Below are positions 1 to 14,266 of a stretch of DNA of 64,000 nucleotides, piece after piece (position 1 is the first letter of the stretch; every line of letters begins with the position of its first letter). A program made the position numbers and the translations under genes. The DNA is from an uncultured Gemmatimonadales bacterium (GTDB taxonomy: Bacteria > Gemmatimonadota > Gemmatimonadetes > Longimicrobiales > RSA9), in contig CAWCRS010000012.1 in the NCBI GenBank assembly GCA_963798085.1, forward strand, positions 1-64,000, in the 5' to 3' direction. The notes under the pieces are model-generated. The model had not been told where the DNA came from. It did no database searches and saw nothing but the letters and a program-made list of their open reading frames with translations.

Positions 1-153
1 GCAAGCGATCACGCTTTGGAGCAGTACGCCACACGTCTGGAACGCGACCGCAGTGCAAACCGGCTTCGCTACAGCCCAGCCCTTGGCCTGACGACGAGCA
101 CGCTGCGGACGAGGCCCTATCGGGCGAACACCAACTTTGGCTCGGACGGGTAG
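1..153 (+). CDS. 3' end of probable CBASS CD-NTase (partial)
   Basis: Frame 1 is open from base 1 and ends ...RPYRANTNFGSDG*. The tail resembles the NTFFG-type C-terminus of E2-associated CD-NTases; it overlaps the E2 gene and precedes a patatin. Confidence 0.6.
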   Translation, partial: ASDHALEQYATRLERDRSANRLRYSPALGLTTSTLRTRPYRANTNFGSDG

Positions 154-577
154 CCGCTACGTTGCGGCCCGTGAACTCAGCGTGCACGAACAGGTCGCGG
201 GGATCAAGCTCGCGTGGCCCAACTTCGTTCACGAGGCTGGAGACGGCCGTTTGGTCAGCCGTGGGAAGCTGCGGCCCACTCCAGCTATCCGGGAGTACGC
301 GGTCCGCATCGAGTATGCGCCTAGAGAGTACCCGCGAGTGTTTGTGGTAGACCCTGCGCTTTCGCCACGCGAGCCAAACGGCAAGATACCGCACGTGTAT
401 CCGGGACGACGGCCCTGCATCTTCTACCCGAAAGTACGTGAGTGGACGAGCGGAATGCGAATCTCTGAGACGATCGTTCCTTGGCTAATGCGTTGGTTAT
501 TTCACTACGAGATTTGGTCGGTCGCTGGCGTGTGGTACGGTGGCGGGATAGAGCATCGAGGCAACAATGACGAGTGA
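137..577 (+). CDS. CBASS E2-like (ubiquitin-conjugating-like, E2-only Cap2 type) protein
   Basis: 146 aa with PHVY..RPCIFYP (candidate catalytic Cys) and IVPWLMRWLFHYEIW..G.W.GGG.EH; lies between CD-NTase tail and patatin. Confidence 0.75.
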   Translation: MARTGSRYVAARELSVHEQVAGIKLAWPNFVHEAGDGRLVSRGKLRPTPAIREYAVRIEYAPREYPRVFVVDPALSPREPNGKIPHVYPGRRPCIFYPKVREWTSGMRISETIVPWLMRWLFHYEIWSVAGVWYGGGIEHRGNNDE

Positions 578-1618
578 GAGCTCAGTCCCTTTTCGCATCC
601 TCAGTCTCAATGGTGGCGGAAATAAGGGCACGTACACTGCGGCGGTTCTTGCCGGGATCGAGGAAATCACCAGGAAACGTATTGTTGACCACTTCGACCT
701 TATCGTCGGGACTTCGACGGGCGGCATCGTCGCGTTGGCTCTCGGGATAGGTTTGCCAGCAGGTGATATCCTTCGCTTTTACGAAGAGAAGGGCCCATCG
801 ATATTCCCGTTGGTCGGTGTTCAGGGCCGGCTTTGGGCGATGCTTCGGCATATGTTCAGGTCGAAGCATTCAATTGAGCCTCTTCGTTCGGCACTCGCAA
901 ACGTGCTTGGTGATCACGTCGTGGGCGATTCGCTTACCAGGCTGGTGCTCGTCTCATACGACGGGTCGAGCGGCGACGTTTACATGATCAAGACCGCGCA
1001 TCATCCGCGTTTCAAGAATGACTACTCAATGCGAGCCATCGACGCGGCGTTAGCGACTTCCGCCGCCCCGACTTTCTTGCCGGCGTTTGTTCGACGAATG
1101 GTACCAAGCTGGTTGACGGTGGCGTGTGGGCAAATTGCCCGGCAGCGGTCGCGGTGACCGAGGCAATGACGGTCTTGGGACAGCGGTCCGGCGAATTTGA
1201 CTTGTTAAGTGTCGGCACGACAGAGAGTCCGTTGCATGTGTCAAGACGCAAGCTTGCTGGCGGTATCCTTCAATGGGCACTGTTCGGACCGGACCTGCTC
1301 CTACAGGCCCAGGCTAAGGGAGCGCTCGCGCAAGCGAAGCTTCTTACGGGCGCGGCAGATCGAATGCTTCGACTCAACGAGGTCGTTGAGCCGAAGCGGT
1401 TTTCGCTCGACAATCCATCAAGCATCCAGGACTTAAAGGCGCTGGGGATGAAGGCAGCGCGACACTACGGGAGGATTGTGGCGGAGCGCTTCCTTGCGGC
1501 GCCTGTCTCAGAGTTTGTGCCATATCATGGTCCGCGCTCTGAGGCCGCGGTCTCCAACGCTGCAATGGATCACCGGCAAGCACCGACACGGCAGATTGAC
1601 CGCGGCGCGCCTTCGTAG
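567..1618 (+). CDS. capV: Patatin-like phospholipase, CapV-type CBASS effector (one frameshift near 1090)
   Basis: GGGNKG and GTSTG motifs in ORF 567-1157; the shifted frame gives KLVDGGVWANCP and runs to 1618. One extra T in TTTGTTCG would join them. Confidence 0.8.
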
Positions 1619-1747
1619 CGAGATTCACAGAGACGAATGTCGAATACAATGCCGCTCCTGCAGCGCCCCTGTCCTGATTTCTCTACAAGCCTGTCCTCAA
1701 TACTCACTGCGACTCCGCAGCCCTTTTCCGCCAGAGCACCCTGTTTC

Positions 1748-1892
1748 AGCTAACGTCTCTGCTGTTCACGACGTGCCGGAGCCGACCGCAAGGGCGGCGC
1801 AGGCATGTCCGCGCCCTTCACAGGGCGACTCGCGTCGGCCACTGCGCGGCCGGCGGCCGACAGGCCGCCGTGCGTGAAATACCGTGTTAGGT
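1748..1892 (-). repeat. attC-like recombination site 1 (145 bp)
   Basis: AGCTAAC-9nt-GTTCACGACG...CGTGCGTGAA-7nt-GTTAGGT; one extra G in the right arm. Confidence 0.85.
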
Positions 1893-1943
1893 GACGTTGG
1901 ACCCACCCTTCTGAAGCGCGCCCTCTGGGCTGCGTTGCGAGAC

Positions 1944-2737
1944 CTACGGGTCCGGGAATTCACGACGCCATTCATCACCAGGGCGCTCGTGGCCGCGTGC
2001 AAGTTCTCGCAATAGGTCTTAAGGTGCTTCCACTTCGCCTGCGGAACCGCTGAGAGGTTATGCGCAAGCGCAAGCGACGAGCGCATGGCAGTCCGAGCGT
2101 TTTCGTATCGAAACGCGGAGAAGCGCCATTCCGTCGCTCTGCCAAGAACCGCGTTGTGGACGAGTAGCCGCGAATCTGCAGGCGGGTGCACCGCCCAATC
2201 GCGAAAGCGGAAAATCTCTCGGATTCCCTCTCGGAGTCCACGGTAATCCTGGCGGTTCGCCAAGGTGAATGCCAGGCGAAATACTTCGCTCGTTTGCTTC
2301 CATCTTGCCGTCTGGTTCTTGGCCCAAGCGGCTTGGTGCAGCGCAGGCACATCAATGCGTTCCTTGACATGTGAATACAGGGCGTCAATGGAGATGGCGG
2401 CAGCTGTTACTGCCTGCATTGATGCGTGGAATTCAGCCTCGAGGAGAGGATATGCTTCTTTCGCCTGCCCTGTGGCTGCCACCTCGAGCGCCAGCCGAGC
2501 ACGTCTTGCCGCCGCGACATGCCCGGTGCCGATTCTTAGCCAGTGCCGGACCAAGTCCATTCTCAGAGCGAAGCCATCATGCTCGACCCTGAAGGCGCCG
2601 TCTGCTGGCACGATGATTCGAAACCCTTGAATGGACAGATCTGCTCCGTCTGGAACTATGATGCCAGCGGCGTTGGCTCTCGCGCTGGGAGCCGGCTTGG
2701 CGGCCTGCGGCGGTTCGTCGGAAATGCTCATTGGCAT
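1944..2737 (-). CDS. Cassette A hypothetical protein (probable frameshift near 1975)
   Basis: The computed ORF 1766-2821 runs through site 1. A one-base shift gives ...LVDEWRREFPDP* ending at 1944, inside the cassette. Start may be 2821 or 2737. Confidence 0.55.
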
Positions 2738-2941
2738 CGATCTCTTGGGTGCTTCGACTTTCGAGGCTAATGGACTACGTACTGCTCGCGGCGATCGATG
2801 GATATGGCCCAACGTTCGCATACAGTTCCCGGGGAACGATTCCCACTTGCCTTGAGGCGGCTACCTCCCCCGGCCGATCATCTGTGCTGACGAAGCCTCC
2901 TTCGTTGTTACTTGGCATGCACGCGCTGTGGGTCCAATGTC

Positions 2942-3084
2942 ACCTAACGTGAGTAAGTTCACGAACCCGCGGGAGCCGGGCGAAGCACGGCGCAGCGGGT
3001 TCCCGGCCTTTCACAGTCTACCCCTTTCACAGCCCGCCGGGCCAGACGCGCGAAGCGCGGCGCCGCGTGAACTGATTGTTATCT
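2942..3084 (-). repeat. attC-like recombination site 2 (143 bp, most divergent)
   Basis: ACCTAAC-8nt-GTTCACG...GCGTGAA-6nt-GTTATCT. Confidence 0.8.
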
Positions 3085-3102
3085 GCCGTAGGTCCGTACG
3101 CC

Positions 3103-5535
3103 CTACGGACGCAGCAGAGTTGCCGAGAAACCGCCGCACAGACACGTAATGGACGCGTCTCGTCCACCCTGCTTCAGGACTCGGTAGAGACCTCGGCATT
3201 GCGGACACCTCAGCGCGTCGAAAAGGTCCCGCATCGCTTCTATCACCGGCCGAAGGTCATTCGGTGTAAGGTCCAGCCATCGATTGTAGTGGACGGCGGG
3301 ATTCACTGCCCACTGTTCGGCCTGAGTCCGGTCATAGATCTGACCTACGACGCCCTCACGTTCCCCCAGCGCAATGGCGTCGGCGGCGTTGTTCCACCGC
3401 TCTGCCGCCTGGCGAGCTTCCTTGAGGAGCTTACGAAACCTAGCCACCGCAGCTGGCATCACAGCTCCGAGATCCCATCTCGCATCCGCTCTGTACGGTA
3501 CCAACGCCTCCAATGCCTCGCAAACACTTGAGAAGTACTCCTCGGAGCCCCGGCGCAGCTTAGCTGCAGCGCCGGCAACATCCCGTTCGGCTAGTGCTGC
3601 CTCGATCTGCTCCCACTGATCTGGGTCCTGTTGTACGTGCGGCCCAGCTTCGATACTCCAATCGAAGAACTCAATCTGCGTTCTTGTAGCTCCACTTGCT
3701 TTGAGCTGATAGGCCCACGTCCGATCGTGCGTTGTGATTAGGAACTGCTTGTCCGGAAACTCGTGGGCAAGAAGGTCCGCTACGTTACGTCGGTGATCAG
3801 CGTCCACGGACATTACTACGTCATCGAGGATGATTAGCTGGAATGCGTCCCGTCCAAGCCACTCGGCCAGGGCGAGGAATAGACACAACCCCATACTGTC
3901 TTGGTGGCCCTCGCTGTGGAGGGCGTGCGGGGGGTGCTGACCATGACCCATGAACTCCACCGTCATGCCCAAGCCAGCCGCCCCAGGCCGGAGTTCGGCG
4001 GTGAAACCGGTTTCATTCTCGCCGTGAATTCGCTGATATAGCGCCACGAATCTGGCGCATACATTATCATACAGGGCACCAAGCACTTCCGTTCGTTGCG
4101 CTTGGTATGCCTCCAAGGTCGCGTGTGCGCGCCGAGCGGCCCTTCGTGCGCCGTCTAACCGGCGGCGGACCTCAAGACGCGCACCAAGTGCCTCTCCAGT
4201 TGCCGTAAGCAGGTCCCAAGCATCCTGGGCTGGGTTTCTCAGGGGTGTCCGAGCTTCCGCGCGGCTCACGAGTTCGTCAATGTTGCCGAGGTCGTCCACT
4301 GCGTCCAATAACTCAGAGATACTGACGCCCACGACGGCGTACTGCTCGAGTGGCACTGTCAGGGCCTCGATCAACTGCGCAATTCGGGTGATGGCTCGAG
4401 GCGCAACTCCTGACTGCGCAGCATCGAGGACGGTCGCAGCTTCATTCAGCTGCTCTGCCGATGCTTCAGCACGTGCCAGCTGCGATCTAGCCCGACCTGC
4501 GAGATCGTCAATTGTACGAAGGGCCGCCTGCACCTCCGACGTCTGTTGTGCCCGTTCGGCAAGGGCTGCGCGCAGCTGACCCGGTGCCCAGGCCGCACCA
4601 CAGAGCGGGCACTCACCAGTCTCCGGAATGAAGGATATTCCGAGGTGAATAAGTCTCGCCGAATCGACGACGCGTGCATAACCCGGGACACTCCGAACGG
4701 AAGCGATCGCTTGCTGGAGCTGGCTGTCCAGCTCGCGAAGTTCGTTCCTTCCCTCAGCGTTCGTAGAATGGGACAAACCTGCGGCAGCGGCGCGCACGGA
4801 ATCGGTGCTTGGACCCAACGCACGCGTGCCTTCCGGCCTTATTATGTCCCGCCGAAGATCGCCCTCGGCAGCAGCGAGTGCTTCACCACCTAGCATCGCG
4901 CGGGCCCGGTTAACAGCCTCAAGCATCTCCGTCTCGTCGACACGGGCCACGCCGGCCGCAGCCGCAACGCGTGCCTCCTGCCGCTCGAGCTCCGCGGTGA
5001 TCACTGCCGCGGAGCGCTCGAGATCTCCCTTTGCACGCACGAGTCGTTGGCGAACGGCCTCGATTCCGGTGAGGTCAAGGACTGCCTGGACGGCATCGGC
5101 TCTGTCGCGCGGTTCCGCCGTGATAAACCTCAGGAGCTCCCTCCTGGTCAGGACGTGCTGGCCGTGCTCGGCGTGCGGCAGAGCTGCTAGGAGTGCCGCT
5201 CGCGCGTTGTCCTCGCACACTAATACGGTGGGACTTGCCACGCAGCGACTGATCTCGATCGGATGCGCCACCCCAGGGATTGTCACATGCGCTCGCACAA
5301 TGGCATGTTCGGGATCCGATCGAATGTGAGGCCCATGTCTATTTAGGCTCAATCCGCCACTTCCACGGCCCGTAAGCCGACCGATCTTCCCGGTGAGCAG
5401 AAAATCGACCGCATCTACAATCGTGCTCTTGCCTGAACCATTTGGACCGAGGATGACCAAGTTCTGGCCATTTGCGACCACCTTCAGACTGCGAATGCCA
5501 CGAAAATGCGCGATTTCAAGCGTTTCGATTTTCAT
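3103..5535 (-). CDS. SMC/Rad50-like ABC ATPase (cassette B)
   Basis: Walker A GPNGSGKS, coiled coil with central CPLC hook, signature LHSEGH, Walker B IILDD, H-loop THD, C-terminal CPQC...CLC. Confidence 0.85.
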   Translation of the reverse strand: MKIETLEIAHFRGIRSLKVVANGQNLVILGPNGSGKSTIVDAVDFLLTGKIGRLTGRGSGGLSLNRHGPHIRSDPEHAIVRAHVTIPGVAHPIEISRCVASPTVLVCEDNARAALLAALPHAEHGQHVLTRRELLRFITAEPRDRADAVQAVLDLTGIEAVRQRLVRAKGDLERSAAVITAELERQEARVAAAAGVARVDETEMLEAVNRARAMLGGEALAAAEGDLRRDIIRPEGTRALGPSTDSVRAAAAGLSHSTNAEGRNELRELDSQLQQAIASVRSVPGYARVVDSARLIHLGISFIPETGECPLCGAAWAPGQLRAALAERAQQTSEVQAALRTIDDLAGRARSQLARAEASAEQLNEAATVLDAAQSGVAPRAITRIAQLIEALTVPLEQYAVVGVSISELLDAVDDLGNIDELVSRAEARTPLRNPAQDAWDLLTATGEALGARLEVRRRLDGARRAARRAHATLEAYQAQRTEVLGALYDNVCARFVALYQRIHGENETGFTAELRPGAAGLGMTVEFMGHGQHPPHALHSEGHQDSMGLCLFLALAEWLGRDAFQLIILDDVVMSVDADHRRNVADLLAHEFPDKQFLITTHDRTWAYQLKASGATRTQIEFFDWSIEAGPHVQQDPDQWEQIEAALAERDVAGAAAKLRRGSEEYFSSVCEALEALVPYRADARWDLGAVMPAAVARFRKLLKEARQAAERWNNAADAIALGEREGVVGQIYDRTQAEQWAVNPAVHYNRWLDLTPNDLRPVIEAMRDLFDALRCPQCRGLYRVLKQGGRDASITCLCGGFSATLLRP

Positions 5536-5722
5536 CTATCCCCTCAACAAACAGGGCGGTGAGCGCCTCGAGCTGCCTGGCTGTGCCTGCCGGCAGAATG
5601 TCCTGCAGGCGTCCGAGTTCCTCTTCGGTAAAGAGGTCGGTCCGACGCACACTCTCGATTGTCTTGGCTATGATGATCGCGGCTAGGTCGTTCGGCCGAG
5701 GCTCTGCCTCACGCTGTGTCAT
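5516..5722 (-). CDS. Small hypothetical protein coupled to the ATPase (cassette B)
   Basis: 68 aa, AAGGAGG RBS upstream of the ATG, overlaps the ATPase start by 20 nt. Confidence 0.65.
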   Translation of the reverse strand: MTQREAEPRPNDLAAIIIAKTIESVRRTDLFTEEELGRLQDILPAGTARQLEALTALFVEGIDENRNA

Positions 5723-5760
5723 GACCCTCCTTGCCGGACTGCCCGGTTAGGACCTATGGC

Positions 5761-5906
5761 AGATAACGTACAAGCGGTTCACGACGTGCCGGAGCCGACC
5801 GTCAGGGCGGCGCAGGCATGTCCCGGCCTTGCAGGCGCGTGTCACTTCGGATTGCCCGCCGGGCCGGCAGCCGGCAGGCTGCCGTGCGTGAAATGACGTG
5901 TTAGAA
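5761..5906 (-). repeat. attC-like recombination site 3 (146 bp)
   Basis: AGATAAC-9nt-GTTCACGACG...CGTGCGTGAA-7nt-GTTAGAA; left part nearly identical to site 1. Confidence 0.85.
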
Positions 5907-5997
5907 GACGTGATCCACCGCTGCCTGACCGGCCCTCGCGCCCAATCTCGGGCGACCCGTTACTATTAATTCAGGCCCAGTCGCTCAGAGGATGCCG

Positions 5998-6676
5998 TCA
6001 GGATCGGACACCCATCGGCAATCTTGGGTCGACCGACGGGCCACGCTGGACCAGGACTGCCTGCAGACCGGCACGCCTCGCTCCCTCCAAGTCATCCAGG
6101 ACCGTATCCCCAACATGCAGCGTCCGATTGGCAGTCACCTCCAGCCGCCTGCACGCCTCTTCGAAGATCGCCGGGTTCCGGTTTGGCGCTTCCAACTTCA
6201 GCCAATAGCAGATGACCGCATCCAGCATACCCCCAATGCCGAGTTCCGTACAGGAAGTGCGACAGCCCACACTGCCAGTTGGAGACGACGGCTGTGGCAA
6301 TGCCAGCCGCGCGTAGCGCCCTAAGAACCCGGGGCACTTCCGGGTACGGGGCGTGCACCAGGCTGCTCGGCCCGAGCACGTGCCAAATGGCAAGGGCGGA
6401 GTGGCCGCGTCCGCATTCGCGCCTTGGCACGTTCAAGCGCCGAAACAGGCCGCTCGACCAAGCGAACCAGGTGCTCCGATCTCGGCTCGGGCGCGAGATC
6501 GGGCGAGTACTCCCGGCCGTGGGGCTCGAAGACATCATAGAGTACCTGGTGCTCCCAGGGGTCCGACGCCAGGCCTTGCGCTCCAGGTACTGCATCAGGA
6601 TGGCGCCCCTGCCGCGACCGGTCCGGTGGTCTGCAAGCGTCTTGTAGAAGTCCAGGCAAACCGCGTCAACCCGCAT
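5998..6676 (-). CDS. HAD-superfamily hydrolase (cassette C; several frameshifts)
   Basis: CLDFYKTL, VVSNW, SAKP and HVGD...DLEGARRAGL motifs are spread over three frames. Confidence 0.75.
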
Positions 6677-6783
6677 GACTTGACCTCGCGCCGATAGCCT
6701 TCGTGTGACCGCTTGGCTCGGCTACCACGGATCCCACATCTGAACAGGGCCTGCACGCTTCAGATCGGGGGGTGGATCATGTC

Positions 6784-6923
6784 TGCTAACGTGATGGCGG
6801 TTCATGACGCGCCGGAGCCGCGGGCGGCGCAGGCGTGTCCACGCCCCTCCCAAGCTATTCGCCTCGGCCATTGCGCGGCCAGCCGCGCGAACGCGCGGCG
6901 CCGCATGAACTAGCGTGTTAGCT
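6784..6923 (-). repeat. attC-like recombination site 4 (140 bp)
   Basis: TGCTAAC-9nt-GTTCATG...GCATGAA-7nt-GTTAGCT. Confidence 0.85.
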
Positions 6924-7168
6924 GTTGGGCGCGCCCTTCCAAGCGCGCTGCCGCGGCACGAGCTCTGATCAGCCTTTCCCAAGACACCGTTGCCGCTCAA
7001 TGACAACGCCGCGCCAGCGGGCGGAGCTGACCGGTATCGCGGCTGCCCCGTTCCAAAACGCCGCGCCAGCGGGCGCCGCTTGCCGACAGCGGGAGGACCG
7101 CCTCGGCCACGCAGACCGCCAACCCAAATTCCGTTTCAAGATCCGTTGCAACGCCTTTTTCAGCTAAC
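6917..7168 (-). other. ORF-less cassette D
   Basis: About 250 bp between sites 4 and 5; near-duplicate of 7300-7530; no ORF shared by the two copies. Confidence 0.7.
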
Positions 7169-7306
7169 GTGATGGGGGTTCATGACGTGCCGGAGCCGAC
7201 CGCCAGGGCGGCGCAGGCATGTCCACGCCCTTCCCGAGCGACCGCCTCGGCCATTGCGCGGCCAGCCGCGCGAACGCGCGGCGCCGCATGAACTAGCGTG
7301 TTAGCT
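7162..7306 (-). repeat. attC-like recombination site 5 (145 bp)
   Basis: AGCTAAC-9nt-GTTCATG...GCATGAA-7nt-GTTAGCT; close to site 4. Confidence 0.85.
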
Positions 7307-7530
7307 GTTGGGCGCGCCCTTCCAAGCGCGCTACCGCGGCACGAGCTCTATCACCTTTCCAGACACCGTTGCCGCTCAATGACCGCCGCGCCAGCGGCGG
7401 CTGACCTGCATCGCGCTGCCCCGTTCCAAACGCCGCGCCAGCGGCGCCGCTTGCCGACAGCGAGGCCGCCTCGGCCACGCGACCGCCAACCCAAATTCCG
7501 TTCAGATCCGTTGCGCGCCTTTCAGCTAAC
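7300..7530 (-). other. ORF-less cassette E (integrase-proximal)
   Basis: About 230 bp paralogue of cassette D; its ends pair at 15/18. Confidence 0.7.
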
Positions 7531-7560
7531 GTTGAATGGGTGTGGCGGGGCATGTTAATG
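7524..7560 (-). other. Candidate attI-like primary insertion site
   Basis: Last cassette junction AGCTAACGT with no inner GTTCAYG box or long palindrome; about 350 bp from the integrase stop. Confidence 0.5.
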
Positions 7561-7881
7561 CCGAGTTGCCGGGTTTGTGGATAGGCGCGTTAGTGGAACT
7601 GAATTTGATGGGTGACGGAGCGCGCTGCAAGGGACGGCGGTGGATGGCGGGAGGGTTGACGGGTTGGATGGTGATGGGGCAGCCGTCCAAGGTGCTGGGG
7701 CAATGGTGGATACCGACTGACGCACGGGTTGGGGAGGTCAGTTCAGGTGCATCGGGCGGGATCTGAATGCGTGGAAGAAACCGCGGGTGGCGGCGCTTTC
7801 TCTGAGCGGTGGCGCGCGGCACTGACGTGAACCTGGTCGTGATAATGGAGCTGTTAGGGCGAGGTGCGAAAAGAGTCGTGG

Positions 7882-10347
7882 CTAGGGGTGCGAGCGATTG
7901 GGAGGTCTGGGTGGAGGTGGGGGTGAAAGAGACGGCGGGGGTGGTGGGGGCAGGGCGGGAGGGTCGGGGGTGTCGAGGGGGCTGCGGATGTTGCCGAGGT
8001 CGCGGCGGCTCACATGGGTGTAGATCTGGGTGGTCTTGGGGCTGGCGTGGCCGAGGAGTTCCTGGATGTATCGGAGGTCGGTACCGGCTTCGAGGAGGTG
8101 TGTGGCGAAGCTGTGGCGGAGTGTGTGGGCGGTTGCATGGGTGCCAATGCCGGCCTGTGTGCGGGCGTTCTCGACGACTTTCTGGGCGGAGCGGACTGCG
8201 AGGTGGCGAGTGGGCGGGGTGCCGGGGAAGAGCCAGCTGACAGGCGACCATGTGCGCATGTACTCGCGGATCGCGTCGAGTGCGCGGTCGGAGAGGAGGG
8301 TGTAGCGGTCCTTGCGACCCTTGGCGGCGCGGACGCGGATGAGTCCGCGGGCGGGGTCAATGTCTTCGACTCTCAGGCGTACGACCTCGCCGACGCGCAG
8401 TCCTGCGGAATAGAGGAGCATGAGAAGGGCGCGGTGCTTGGGGTTCAAGGACACGCGCACAATGCGCGCGGCATCGGCGCGACCGAGCACGGCGGGCAGG
8501 TTGCGGTCGGGGCGCGGACGGGGGATGCCGTTCAGGAAGTGGGCACTGTCCAGGACGTGGGTGAAGAAGAAGCGGAGTGCGCTAACTGCCTGTGAGTGGT
8601 AGGACGTGGAGACGTTGTCCCGTTCGACGCGCTCGAGGAAGTACGCGCGCACGTGATCCGCGTTGAGGGCAGGCGCTTCGGCGCGGGCGTGCCGCAGGAA
8701 GGCGCGTGTGTGGTGGAGGTAGGCACGGCGGGTGCGGAAGCTGTGTCGCCTGAGCGTCATCTCCTCACCGAGGCGGGCCAGCAGCTCGGATTCGCCGGGT
8801 GCTGGCGGCAGCGTTGCAATGGAGCGGCGTTTTGCGGGGCTGGCGCGGGACGACACGGCGGCGCGGTCAGCGGTGAGTGGCGATGTTGGAGCGGGGCGTA
8901 CTTGCGGCGTCTGTGGCGTGTCGCCCTGGCGTGCGATCTCGATAATGCGGCGCACGGCGAGTCTCGCGGCAGGCGTGTCGGCCAGGATCCAGCAACGTTC
9001 CGGGTTGCTCCACACGCGGTCCGGCAGCATGCGGAGAACTGCGCGGGCGCGAGGGGTGTCATCGCAGGCGAGGGCAATGCGTCCGTCGGGTCGGAGCCAG
9101 ACGCGCGGCTCGCCGGCTGCCGGAGCCAGCCGGGCTGTCGCGGCGGAGGCGCGATGCTGCGCCGCGGTCTGTTTCGCTGATGAAGCGACCTGTGCAGCAG
9201 TGGCGCGATCGACAGGCGGACGTGCGGATGAGACGCCGGGTTCGGTGCGCGACGCGCGCGGCGCGGGTCTGGCGGGCACGGATTTGTGGTCATTGCGATC
9301 GTGGTCATTGCGATCGTGGTCATTGCGATCGTGGTCATTGCGAGCGTGGTCATTGCGCGCGCGGTCGTGGTGTGCGGGAGTCGATGGCGCGTCGGGTCGG
9401 GGTCGCGAGGATGTCGCAGGCGAAGCGGGTGGCAGCGTCGCAGTCAGCCGTTCGCGTTGAACCGGATCGGGCGATGCGGTTCGAGGCGGGACGGGTGGCG
9501 GAGGCGGTGTCGTCGCCTGATATCCGTGCCGTGGCAGGGATTGCCGTTGCGGTGGCAAGGGGCGTGTGGTTGGCGGTTCTGCCGCCGGTGTGCGGCCGGC
9601 CGCCGGTGCGCGTGCGGCGCGGGCTGGAGTGGCGGGTGGAGGCACGGGACCGGCTTCGGGGCGTTGGAGCGACGCGGCCGGCGTGGCTTCTAACGCTGTG
9701 CTTGTATCGGGCGCGAGCGCGCGACGCGGCACGGCATCGTGCTGTGCGGGTGCGCGGGTCGAGGCGAGGGGCGGGATCGCCTGTACAGTTGCATCGGTCG
9801 GCAATGGTCGATGCTGGCGGGCCAGCCGGTCGGCCGGGTCCGGCGGAGGCGGTGTGGCCGCCTGGTGTCCGGCATGGGACGGTTGAGGCGGTTGCGGAGG
9901 CGACCGCCGGGTGTGCGGCGTCTGCGGTGGCACTTTGCGAGCCGCTCCCGCTGTGTGGGTGGCTGCAAGCGAAGCGGTCGACGTCGCTGGCAAGGCCAGT
10001 GGTGGGGCCGCGGCGTCGGGGCCTGGCAGTGCTGTGGCGGGCGCGGGTTCTAACGCGGTGCTTGGGTCCGTCGTTCGTGTGACCGGCGGCGTCGCATCCG
10101 GCTCCATGTGTACGCGCACCGTGCAGTGTGGAACGAACGGCGGTTGCGACGCATCGGGCAGCAGCGGTCGGCGGCGCCAGGATGTGCGGTGCGGCGGATC
10201 GGGCTGCGGTGCGGCTGCGGGCGCAGCGGGCTGCGCGGGGCCGGGGATTGTCGCCGCGGGTGGCGCAGCAGGCGACTTCGTGCCGTCGGTTTCGGCTTGT
10301 GCCGGTGGCGAGCCGGTCCGGGCAGCAGCTGGGCGAGTGTCAGGCAT
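7882..10347 (-). CDS. Tyrosine recombinase with SAM-like N-domain and extra N-terminal domain (start uncertain; conserved part about 7950-9110)
   Basis: AGLR, KGRKDR, HTLRHSFATHLLE, IQELLGH, TQIY and SPLD motifs. ATG 10347 follows GGGGACAGG; the region above about 9110 is low complexity. Confidence 0.9.
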   Translation of the reverse strand: MPDTRPAAARTGSPPAQAETDGTKSPAAPPAATIPGPAQPAAPAAAPQPDPPHRTSWRRRPLLPDASQPPFVPHCTVRVHMEPDATPPVTRTTDPSTALEPAPATALPGPDAAAPPLALPATSTASLAATHTAGAARKVPPQTPHTRRSPPQPPQPSHAGHQAATPPPPDPADRLARQHRPLPTDATVQAIPPLASTRAPAQHDAVPRRALAPDTSTALEATPAASLQRPEAGPVPPPATPARAARAPAAGRTPAAEPPTTRPLPPQRQSLPRHGYQATTPPPPPVPPRTASPDPVQRERLTATLPPASPATSSRPRPDAPSTPAHHDRARNDHARNDHDRNDHDRNDHDRNDHKSVPARPAPRASRTEPGVSSARPPVDRATAAQVASSAKQTAAQHRASAATARLAPAAGEPRVWLRPDGRIALACDDTPRARAVLRMLPDRVWSNPERCWILADTPAARLAVRRIIEIARQGDTPQTPQVRPAPTSPLTADRAAVSSRASPAKRRSIATLPPAPGESELLARLGEEMTLRRHSFRTRRAYLHHTRAFLRHARAEAPALNADHVRAYFLERVERDNVSTSYHSQAVSALRFFFTHVLDSAHFLNGIPRPRPDRNLPAVLGRADAARIVRVSLNPKHRALLMLLYSAGLRVGEVVRLRVEDIDPARGLIRVRAAKGRKDRYTLLSDRALDAIREYMRTWSPVSWLFPGTPPTRHLAVRSAQKVVENARTQAGIGTHATAHTLRHSFATHLLEAGTDLRYIQELLGHASPKTTQIYTHVSRRDLGNIRSPLDTPDPPALPPPPPPSLSPPPPPRPPNRSHP
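9286..9360. repeat. 15-bp tandem repeat x5 (GTGGTCATTGCGATC)
   Basis: Read directly; encodes NDHDR repeats in the integrase frame. Confidence 0.9.
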
Positions 10348-10701
10348 CCTGTCCCCGTGTGTGCAGTGCGGCCAGGAGTTTGTGCGATACGAGGGGGCAG
10401 AGCCATGGCTGGGCGGGTCGCGAACGAGTGCGCGCTGCGAGTGTCGGCGCCATGGTGTCGCGGTCGGGATGTCGATCGCTGGTCTGCCACGGGGCGGGCG
10501 TCGGCAAGACCGGCGTCCAGCGGAATTCGAGACGAAATCGCACATCACCCGGCGAATCGCCTCGCCGGCGCGGCATTGAAGGTGCGCATGATCCATCAGT
10601 GGCGCGGGCACGACAGCCGCGGCGGGCCGACTCCTTCGGTGCACATCGGTGCGCGTTGCCGAGGCCCGCGGCTGTGTCCCGGGACATGCGTGGAGACGGG
10701 T

Positions 10702-10869
10702 CGACGCGCCACTGAACGACGCCAACTGAACGACGCGCCAACTGAACGACGCGCCAACTGAACGACGCGCCACTGAACGACGCGCCACTTGAATGACGCG
10801 ACACTGAACGACGCGCCACTGAACGACGCGCCACTGAACGACGCGCCACTGAATGACGCGCCACTGAAC
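10702..10869. repeat. 15-bp tandem repeat x~11 (CCACTGAACGACGCG)
   Basis: Read directly; small indels between units. Confidence 0.9.
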
Positions 10870-11189
10870 AATATGCATGGCGTGATCGGTGCGGGCCTCG
10901 AGGCGGACGGGACGGCTCCAGGTCGCAGAATCGAGACCGTCGCCTTCAATGTGTAATGGACTGTTATGGCGGCCGCCATCACCTCGTCGCCCATGGAGCC
11001 GGTGAACCGCCGCCTGTACGCCCGGCGTGTAACCCGCTGGCAGTCAGTGTCGTGCCCGATCGTGCGGAGCAGTGCTGGCAGGCTTCTGCGTCGAGTTGAT
11101 TGACGCGGATACCACGGGCGAGAAGCGGTCCGTGGCCTCCGTCCGGCGTGTGAAACAGTGCAACCCGGGAACCGGGGTGCATCCGGGCA

Positions 11190-11290
11190 TCAAATGGCGA
11201 ACCACGCCAGACCGTCCGGCGTGAAGCCGCCGTCGAGAAGACGAGCGACGTTGGGGTGCTCGAGCGTCGCGAGGATGCGGCGCGGTGGAA
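11190..11290 (-). pseudogene. Ser/Thr protein kinase remnant
   Basis: RRILATLEHPNVARLLDGGFTPDGLAWF matches Hanks kinase subdomains III-V; the rest of the domain is absent. Confidence 0.55.
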
Positions 11291-11893
11291 GCTCCTGTCG
11301 CAACGCGAACGAGATCCGCCGATCGCACTCCCTGACAGCGTCCGGGGACCATACGGTGCACACCAGACCATATGTTGCAACCATCGGCCGGCAAGCCGGA
11401 AATCGTGGGACATCGTACGTGGCGGTACGCGCGACGGTTGAATGGAAGGAAACCGGGGTTGAACGAGGAGGTGTGGGAGGATTCACGTGGGGACGAGTGG
11501 GCTGTATCTCGACGCCACTTGTGCATTCGGCCGCAGCGGCAGACCGCCCGGCGCGTTGCACCTCCTCGAAACGGCGCTGCTAATCCTTTGTCGGCTCGCC
11601 TTGCCGGATCGGCTGCGGCCGCGGCCTCGGTGCGAGTTGTCCGGTTACAGTCACGGCGAACCGGCTGGTGCCCGCGGGTGTCGCCGTCTGTTCACGCGGG
11701 ACATTACCCGCTCTGCCCCTGTGAGCCCTGCTCATTCTGCGCCTCCCACATCAGCTGCCTCTCGCTGCCGCTCTCCCCATAATCAATCCGTACATCGGCC
11801 TGCCCTGTGACCGGGACGGTGATCAGCCTTGTTCCCAGTCGATCTCGCACTCTTCGACGCCCGTCCATTCGAGGAAGCGATCCACCGGACTTA

Positions 11894-12142
11894 CGCCGCA
11901 GAGGCGCCTGAAGAGATTGCGGTCGCGGCTAACGTCACGATCTACGCCGCAGAGTCGCCTGAAGAGATTGCGGTCGCGGCTAACGTCACGATCTACGCCG
12001 CAGAGTCGCCTGAAGAGATTGCGGTCGCGGCTGACGTCGCGGATCAAGGCCGCAGAGGCGCCTGAAGCGATTGCGTCGCGGCTGACGTCGCGGATCAAGG
12101 CCGCAGAGGCGCCTGAAGACATTGCGTCGCGGCTGACGTCGC
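11894..12142. repeat. ~51-bp tandem repeat x~5
   Basis: GCCGCAGAG(G/T)CGCCTGAAG...GTCGCGGCT(A/G)ACGTC units. Confidence 0.85.
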
Positions 12143-13977: not shown

Positions 13978-14027
13978 TGGCGTCGCGGGCGACCGCCATT
14001 GAAGGGATGCGGGATAGAGGCTCGACC

Positions 14028-14266
14028 GGAACCGGATGCGCGGGTTGTGCGAATCGCACCACGGTCGTGGCTCGAAATCTGAAGCTCGCGACAAGGTTGG
14101 GTTGCCGGAGCCGGATGCGCGGGTTGTGCGAATCGCACCACGGTAGTGGCTCGAGATCTGAAGTTCGCAACAAGGTTGGGTGGCCGGAACGGATGCGCGG
14201 GTTGTGCGAATCGCACCATGGTAGTGGCTCGAAGATCTGAAGCTCGCGACAAGATTGGGTGGCCGG
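14028..14266. repeat. ~79-bp tandem repeat x3
   Basis: CGGATGCGCGGGTTGTGCGAATCGCACCA...CTGAAG(C/T)TCGC units near 14032, 14111 and 14189. Confidence 0.85.

Follow-up and report, generated by a model that had tools for sequence, protein, structure and literature searches.

Cassette Array Behind an Insertion-Less Recombinase

The stretch of DNA analyzed here (hereafter the window) represents the initial 64 kb of contig C12 from the source genome G000, an uncultured Gemmatimonadales bacterium, and carries near its start an integron-like array of gene cassettes together with a gene for a tyrosine recombinase that lacks the insertion found in the integron integrase IntI (Table 1). A TAAC..GTTA site pattern had exactly five matches in the window, spanning 134–140 bp each, or 140–146 bp when the 7-bp R boxes are counted, in line with the five uniform sites described in an earlier note on this DNA. 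The pattern had 0 matches in the remainder of the window and 0 in 200 window shuffles, the latter figure being flattered by derivation of the pattern from the same five sites. With one half-site, these sites delimit five whole cassettes on the minus strand, and their coordinates confirm that all five lie downstream of and co-oriented with the recombinase, as the earlier note had stated. A tandem-repeat or chance origin of the sites was rejected by repeat and shuffle analyses, and a structured RNA family by the 0 Rfam matches in the window.

The half-site, whose flank GCTG agrees with the R'' flank of the first site, adjoins the integrase gene and is a candidate attI-type entry site with a correct flank and without a conserved L box. 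Comparable half-sites, read by eye, lie behind homologues in the related genomes G010, G013, and G005. No sigma-70-like match to a Pc promoter was present in 6700–11200, in a scan that may not suit this host.

Table 1. Features of the array region in the window, with coordinates in window positions.
Feature	Position	Strand	Description
Tyrosine recombinase	7882..9129	−	HARP-like domain, linker, Phage_int_SAM_4, catalytic domain without IntI insertion
HARP-like domain	8932..9129	−	~60 aa with two conserved Trp; conserved in homologues
attI-like half-site	7523–7532	−	First cassette junction; ACGTTAGCTG in cassette sense; ~350 bp past recombinase stop codon
attC-like site 1	7165–7303	−	Closes cassette 1 (7168–7529), without convincing gene
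attC-like site 2	6787–6920	−	Closes cassette 2 (6790–7167), without convincing gene
attC-like site 3	5764–5903	−	Closes cassette 3 (5767–6789): HAD hydrolase in two frames (5998–6676)
attC-like site 4	2945–3081	−	Closes cassette 4 (2948–5766): 810-aa SMC/RecF-like ATPase (3103–5535)
attC-like site 5	1751–1889	−	Closes cassette 5 (1754–2947): open reading frame without known family
Putative sixth, partial cassette	1..1753	+	Cut by contig start; cyclic-oligonucleotide-based anti-phage signaling system (CBASS) genes opposite to array direction
E2-like protein	137–577	+	PADLOC E2, 1.2e-41
Patatin phospholipase	567–1618	+	Frameshifted near 1100–1150; PADLOC Effector, 1e-62; NCBIfam CBASS_lipase

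The Recombinase and Its N-Terminal Domain

The recombinase matched Pfam PF13495 and PF00589 (135 bits) and reads DRYTLLSDRALDAIREYMRTWSPVSWLFPG. All catalytic R-K-H-R-H-Y residues are present in intact motifs (GLRVGE at 8403, KGRKDR at 8322, HTLRHS at 8127, LGH at 8055, and TQIY at 8031). Only 65 aa separate KG.KDR from HxxRH, vs. 106 in this genome's own IntI and 106–107 across nine IntI proteins, and the insertion region appears as a gap in alignments both to that IntI and to VchIntIA (2a3v). The IntI model TIGR02249 matched in two stretches at 215 bits, below its cut-off of 265, with model positions 180–234 unmatched, and NF040815 gave 200 bits, below its cut-off of 220. By motif spacing and TIGR02249 score, the enzyme is insertion-less, as the earlier note had proposed, and does not score as an ordinary IntI. 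Its best PDB sequence match was 2a3v (E 1.9e-40), while its AlphaFold model matched XerA and VchIntIA best, with XerA 5hxy at Foldseek rank 1.

Phylogenies were limited to quick trees (79 rows, after removal of 17 short, redundant or mis-parsed ones); rows L020, L025, and L029 come from the unpublished genomes G015 and G016, and our conclusions rest on none of them. Nine IntI rows formed one branch with 99% support in the Shimodaira–Hasegawa-like approximate likelihood ratio test (SH-aLRT), and this branch excluded the window protein, which the phylogeny suggested in the earlier note thus places outside the IntI clade. IntI and insertion-less proteins together split from Xer-like rows (98%), and the tree favors neither a sister nor a nested placement of the two. 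The genome encodes only five tyrosine recombinases, among which separate Xer-like genes form their own branch.

The start of the gene is less clear-cut. The reading frame runs without a stop as far as 10878; the database annotation starts at ATG 9030, within the HARP-like domain, and GTG 9279 is a plausible start. Codons 1–585 of the open frame do not share the core's bias toward GC at third positions (0.68 vs. 0.83), which makes the start near 10347 given in the earlier note doubtful, and a 998-aa protein was rejected as not supported by codon bias. Upstream of the enzyme (9130–10878), a long open frame of low complexity carries tandem repeats of 15 bp; further repeats of 51 and 79 bp occur at 11870–12125 and 14026–14261, and close homologues likewise show open frames of >1,100 codons.

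Twenty of 38 loci of the insertion-less group have the conserved N-terminal domain of ~60 aa, with as many as three copies per locus, vs. 0 IntI or IS91-type loci. Pfam HARP matched 6 of 20 aligned members (best E 6.5e-4), with the window member among those without a match. The HARP domain of SMARCAL1, 4o66, was the top PDB match both by sequence (E 0.048) and by Foldseek (E 0.3), both values being weak; its PDB title reads "substrate recognition domain." VIA-align placed ACT domains first (best Z 5.8), with 4o66 outside the 50 matches listed, and Atlas matches were unnamed and under 0.9. We therefore call the domain HARP-like with weak to moderate confidence. HARP domains bind fork-like junctions. 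In an archaeal locus (L035:8316-8504), the domain forms a separate frame upstream of the recombinase, and two or three copies stand in tandem at loci L037, L039, L041, and L047.

Genome-Wide Extent, Cassette Logic, and Movement

A hidden Markov model of the sites found 63 in the genome: five on C12, 44 near the end of C2, nine on C3 (in two clusters), and five at the end of C1. The array is thus far larger than the five sites of the earlier note. Strand directions are compatible with C2 continuing the window array. Both ends were intact in 52 of the 63 sites, most of the damaged or degenerate ones being concentrated toward the distal end of the C2 array, and the 57 intervals between neighboring sites had a median of 1048 bp.

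The bases beside the GTT triplet reveal how the array was put together. The six bases following GTT were compared in 44 adjacent pairs. Position by position, they matched the R'' flank of the next site in 43, 42, 34, 43, 42, and 40 cases, vs. 43, 24, 22, 23, 43, and 21 for the flank of their own site. This rule marks the units as true cassettes, integrated as circles with crossover at GTT. Movement has left direct traces: three cassettes recur at other genome positions, among them window cassette 5, found again at C2:442844-444050 (99.5% over 1208 bp) with other neighbors on both sides. In two informative duplicate sets, the L'-R' spacer before GTT had moved along with the site of its own cassette, the switch being located at GTT, which fits one exchange at that triplet. 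Because the genes upstream of the enzyme are syntenic with those of G010, a member of another genus, and degenerate sites lie at the far C2 end, the platform looks sedentary and chromosomal from its sequence context.

Cassettes 1 and 2 are both short. Cassette 2 is a copy of cassette 1 with 21 inserted bases, possibly read errors, and a relative of cassette 1 lies behind a different site at C2:426314-426680. The ATPase of cassette 4, with a partial best PADLOC match to LmuB (1.6e-21), is a possible defense gene. The partial cassette at the contig start would belong to the array by its position; its first 150 bp, which match no family, may be the end of a CD-NTase, judging from what we take to be a motif of that enzyme. 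Among 41 open reading frames scanned, 23 were without a Pfam family, and the matches to the others included PemK and PIN toxins, methyltransferases, GmrSD, an aminoglycoside-kinase-like gene, and insertion sequence (IS) elements. The cassette at L014:1266-2159 holds an aminoglycoside/hydroxyurea kinase-like gene (PF04655, E 1e-40). No RNA run was listed among sequencing runs containing this DNA; in one soil run (share 0.08), contigs cover the sites piecemeal, and one piece of 268 bases matches 7265–7532 ungapped; neither was used as evidence of activity or habitat.

Fold of the Sites and the Absent Extrahelical Base

Genome-wide, the sites measure 130–157 bp and carry R''/R' boxes with AAC/GTT and paired L''/L' boxes, joined by spacers that vary widely between sites in sequence and length. 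The bottom strand is predicted to fold into an R stem, an unpaired loop of ~6 × 9 nt, a bulge-free L stem of 6–7 bp, and a multi-branched cap, and it was the more stable strand in 41 of 52 sites. Two-sided changes occurred in 4 of 7 L-stem pairs and 5 of 12 pairs of the first cap hairpin. L-stem covariation (0.157 vs. 0.073 shuffled and ≤0.051 slid) exceeded all 500 shuffles, a result that is supportive only, because the structure was inferred from these same, mutually related sites.

The canonical extrahelical base in the L box was present in 0 of 52 sites here vs. 11 of 13 distinct sites of the array belonging to this genome's IntI. A looser test for L-side bulges, with thresholds hand-set per locus and with seven sites of the unpublished G016 and five of L110 excluded, scored such a bulge in 5 of 70 sites in the vicinity of insertion-less enzymes from other published genomes vs. 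31 of 33 near IntI genes. The enzyme is without the I2 helix and the sites are without the L-box extrahelical base, so that the two losses match.

Array Linkage Among Relatives

Ten of 41 related genomes, G000 included, matched the enzyme at E 1e-60. G010 (98% complete) has two insertion-less enzymes with a chained array behind each (59 sites in all), and G013 (95%, 5 contigs) has an array directly behind its insertion-less enzyme, with three model matches; no IntI over the cut-off was found in either genome. The covariance-model scan around homologues that the earlier note had suggested placed the window's site class behind the enzymes of G010 and G013, and the missing array linkage that the note had named as a possible objection does not apply to these close homologues. 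In G003, G007, G011, G039, and G122, the contig ends ≤~350 bp past the enzyme match.

A wider homologue survey yielded 79 loci from 185,579 species. Chained bulge-free arrays stand behind the enzyme in two Flavobacteriaceae loci (L040 and L058) and in G233, and no IntI was found in the genomes of these three. Contigs end within 2.5 kb downstream at 12 of the 38 loci of the insertion-less group and upstream at two, as repeats would cause. In a sample of the phylum, the enzyme occurred in 5 of 201 genomes (E 1e-68), more rarely than IntI (82 of 201 over the cut-off).

At L049, a chained array lies upstream of 10001 on the opposite strand, pointing away from the insertion-less enzyme in the classical divergent layout, and the same genome has a second insertion-less enzyme with a co-oriented array. 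Two copies of a unit consisting of an integrase and an IS91-like transposase occupy L114:8470-14230 (G010:C22); the unit is formatted like a cassette because it begins at the GTT of a site and ends in a GTTCAAC..GTTA hairpin, and L042 has a similar end. Downstream of 10744 at L110 (Marinobacter), an IS91-type recombinase sits among canonical-looking attC sites.

Proposed Mechanism and Alternatives

We consider it likely that the array is an integron-type platform run by the adjacent insertion-less recombinase, which would act on folded, bulge-free bottom strands with one exchange at GTT. A cassette would consist of one gene, or none, and a site of 130–157 bp. The bottom strand of the site would fold, the enzyme would bind the R and L boxes of the fold and make a single strand exchange at the GTT triplet, and replication would resolve the junction. 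Excision would take place between two sites and insertion at the half-site behind the enzyme gene, and the HARP-like domain may help to recognize the junction of single- and double-stranded DNA. The cassette structure, the GTT crossover, past movement, L-stem covariation, the absence of both insertion and bulge, and the pairing of site family with enzyme family can be read from the sequences themselves; from these we infer this enzyme as the catalyst, a single-stranded substrate, replicative resolution, and a role for the HARP-like domain. The earlier note had suggested a parallel gene-capture platform, and this suggestion is supported by the position of the enzyme outside the IntI clade and by kin that head arrays in genomes where IntI was not found.

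Several observations weigh against this interpretation. The preference for the bottom strand is weak, averaging −1.9 kcal/mol, and canonical control sites did not show it (7 of 15); the R boxes of the sites are IntI-compatible. Among the 52 sites of this genome, bulges were scored by the looser test on the left in 7 cases and on the right in 22, probably because the interval it examines extends into the branched cap. The link from C12 to C2 crosses an assembly gap, with no direct overlap between the two contigs, and clusters of bulge-free sites at C1:475200-482500 and C3:688400-695900 have no adjacent enzyme; the C1 cluster opens at its own half-site near 475210, and tblastn found no remnant of a second enzyme copy near these orphan clusters. 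G001 has five sites with no enzyme match at E 1e-60, and a broken integrase of uncertain class on G001:C207. At L040 and L058, arrays occur with no HARP-like domain detected, so that the domain is not obligatory for arrays. In a strict chain test, co-oriented downstream chains appeared at 2 of 15 insertion-less loci with ≥4 kb, with an additional chain upstream on the opposite strand at one such locus, vs. 3 of 8 IntI loci, 1 of 15 IS91-type loci, and 0 of 11 loci of the candidate phyla radiation and DPANN (CPR/DPANN); the IntI controls mark this test as insensitive, but array linkage may hold for only part of the family. Close kin in the units of integrase and IS91-like transposase are mostly without arrays (1 of 15). 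Finally, the genome has an intact-looking canonical intI of its own (C1:447485-448429, 410 bits).

The alternative that survives best, although improbable, is that the same enzyme works Xer-style on duplex DNA, with two exchanges across the AAC-N9-GTT end of the site and the hairpin being secondary. The I2 helix, described as blocking the second exchange and docking extrahelical bases (PMC7790495), is missing here, as are the bases; the top structural match is XerA; and the L'-spacer-R' end forms an inverted AAC..GTT pair as duplex. Spacers that differ as widely as these would nevertheless block a second exchange, and in the two informative duplicate sets the spacer stayed with its own cassette. 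A duplex site confined to one end would also have no need for the distant R''/L'' half, yet this half shows conservation and covariation with L'.

A slightly smaller chance attaches to the array being shuffled in trans by the canonical IntI of C1, with the insertion-less enzyme a bystander or relic. That IntI belongs to an integron at C1:447350-464000, whose co-oriented array (449–464 kb) has ~15–18 sites and several duplicated or triplicated cassettes; the type is common in the phylum, and the bulge-free cluster on C1 lies 12 kb beyond its array. The two site classes are unmixed, however: the covariance model of the window's class gave only one partial 17-bit match in the C1 array, and the two arrays have no cassette in common. 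The window array opens at a half-site right behind the insertion-less enzyme, its sites are without the base that IntI recognizes, and G010 and G013 combine the same site and enzyme families with no IntI found. The earlier note had named a canonical intI elsewhere as a possible explanation of the array; such a gene does exist, but its sites are built differently and it shares no cassette, so that it is unlikely, as judged from sequence, to explain the window array. The note had also set the enzyme apart by its co-orientation with the array, a layout that holds and is not distinctive, given that the C1 intI is co-oriented too.

That the sites stem from another mobile system (e.g., integrase and IS91-like units) or are gene-associated repeats mimicking cassettes is very improbable: a related clade adjoins IS91-like reading frames, and the G010 unit has the site-like start and hairpin end described above, but no such unit was found in this genome with its five tyrosine recombinases, the flank-matching rule is specific to the integration of circular cassettes, and 14 of 15 IS91-type loci are without a chain.

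Relation to Known Systems and Implications

The nearest known systems are sedentary chromosomal integrons (IntI, attI, attC; e.g., VchIntIA, 2a3v), with which the window system has in common a SAM_4 tyrosine recombinase, a candidate single entry site ahead of tens of cassettes in the same orientation, R boxes of AAC/GTT with crossover at GTT, and toxin-antitoxin, defense-like, and gene-less cassettes. It differs in an enzyme without the ~41-aa insertion, outside the IntI clade and with an extra HARP-like domain, and in sites without the L-box extrahelical base, whose short L stem runs into a branched cap. Co-orientation of integrase gene and cassettes is likewise seen in the Treponema integron and on C1, but the sites of the former have a protruding G in the L box (PMC3607928), and the latter has the bulge and a full IntI. 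The system would work like an integron but has neither the IntI insertion nor the attC extrahelical base, both defining features, so we do not class it as one.

Other insertion-less recombinases are more distant in organization. XerA, XerC, and XerD have a similarly compact catalytic domain, but the Xer-like genes of this genome fall on their own branch and dif sites form no cassette arrays. Integrases paired with IS91-like transposases are insertion-less SAM_4 recombinases of the same broad group, but form their own clade (97% SH-aLRT), have the HARP-like domain in 0 of 21 cases, and occur in two-gene units rather than at array heads. Smyshlyaev et al. (2021) reported that the insertion is not fully conserved in an "integron-like" subgroup of simple tyrosine recombinases, yet called it essential for integron function (PMC8138268); in the accessible text of that study, arrays are not linked to insertion-less members. 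A literature search that covered mostly journals free of subscription yielded no report of an array with an insertion-less enzyme at its head.

Integrons are regarded as owing their existence to one innovation, the I2 insertion. IntegronFinder defines IntI by the insertion domain (PMC9668308), and a study of integron evolution noted a "lack of intermediates" (PMC7790495). An enzyme that heads an array without I2, paired with sites without the corresponding bulge, allows a direct test of whether I2 is needed, and one genome with two enzymes and two site classes amounts to a natural two-by-two experiment. Should the two systems prove orthogonal, a reservoir of gene capture will have escaped surveys, and the enzyme may be useful as a structure-directed recombinase. 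We put forward only tentatively, and regard as rather doubtful, the broader proposal that the insertion-less clade is a second integron lineage orthogonal to IntI, recombining folded single strands without recognition of extrahelical bases and, in some members, with a HARP-like domain replacing I2. Were it true, the lineage would be a living intermediate between Xer and IntI, and cassette capture would predate I2. It would also account for cassette arrays in Bacteroidota, where almost no complete integrons have been reported (PMC9024848).

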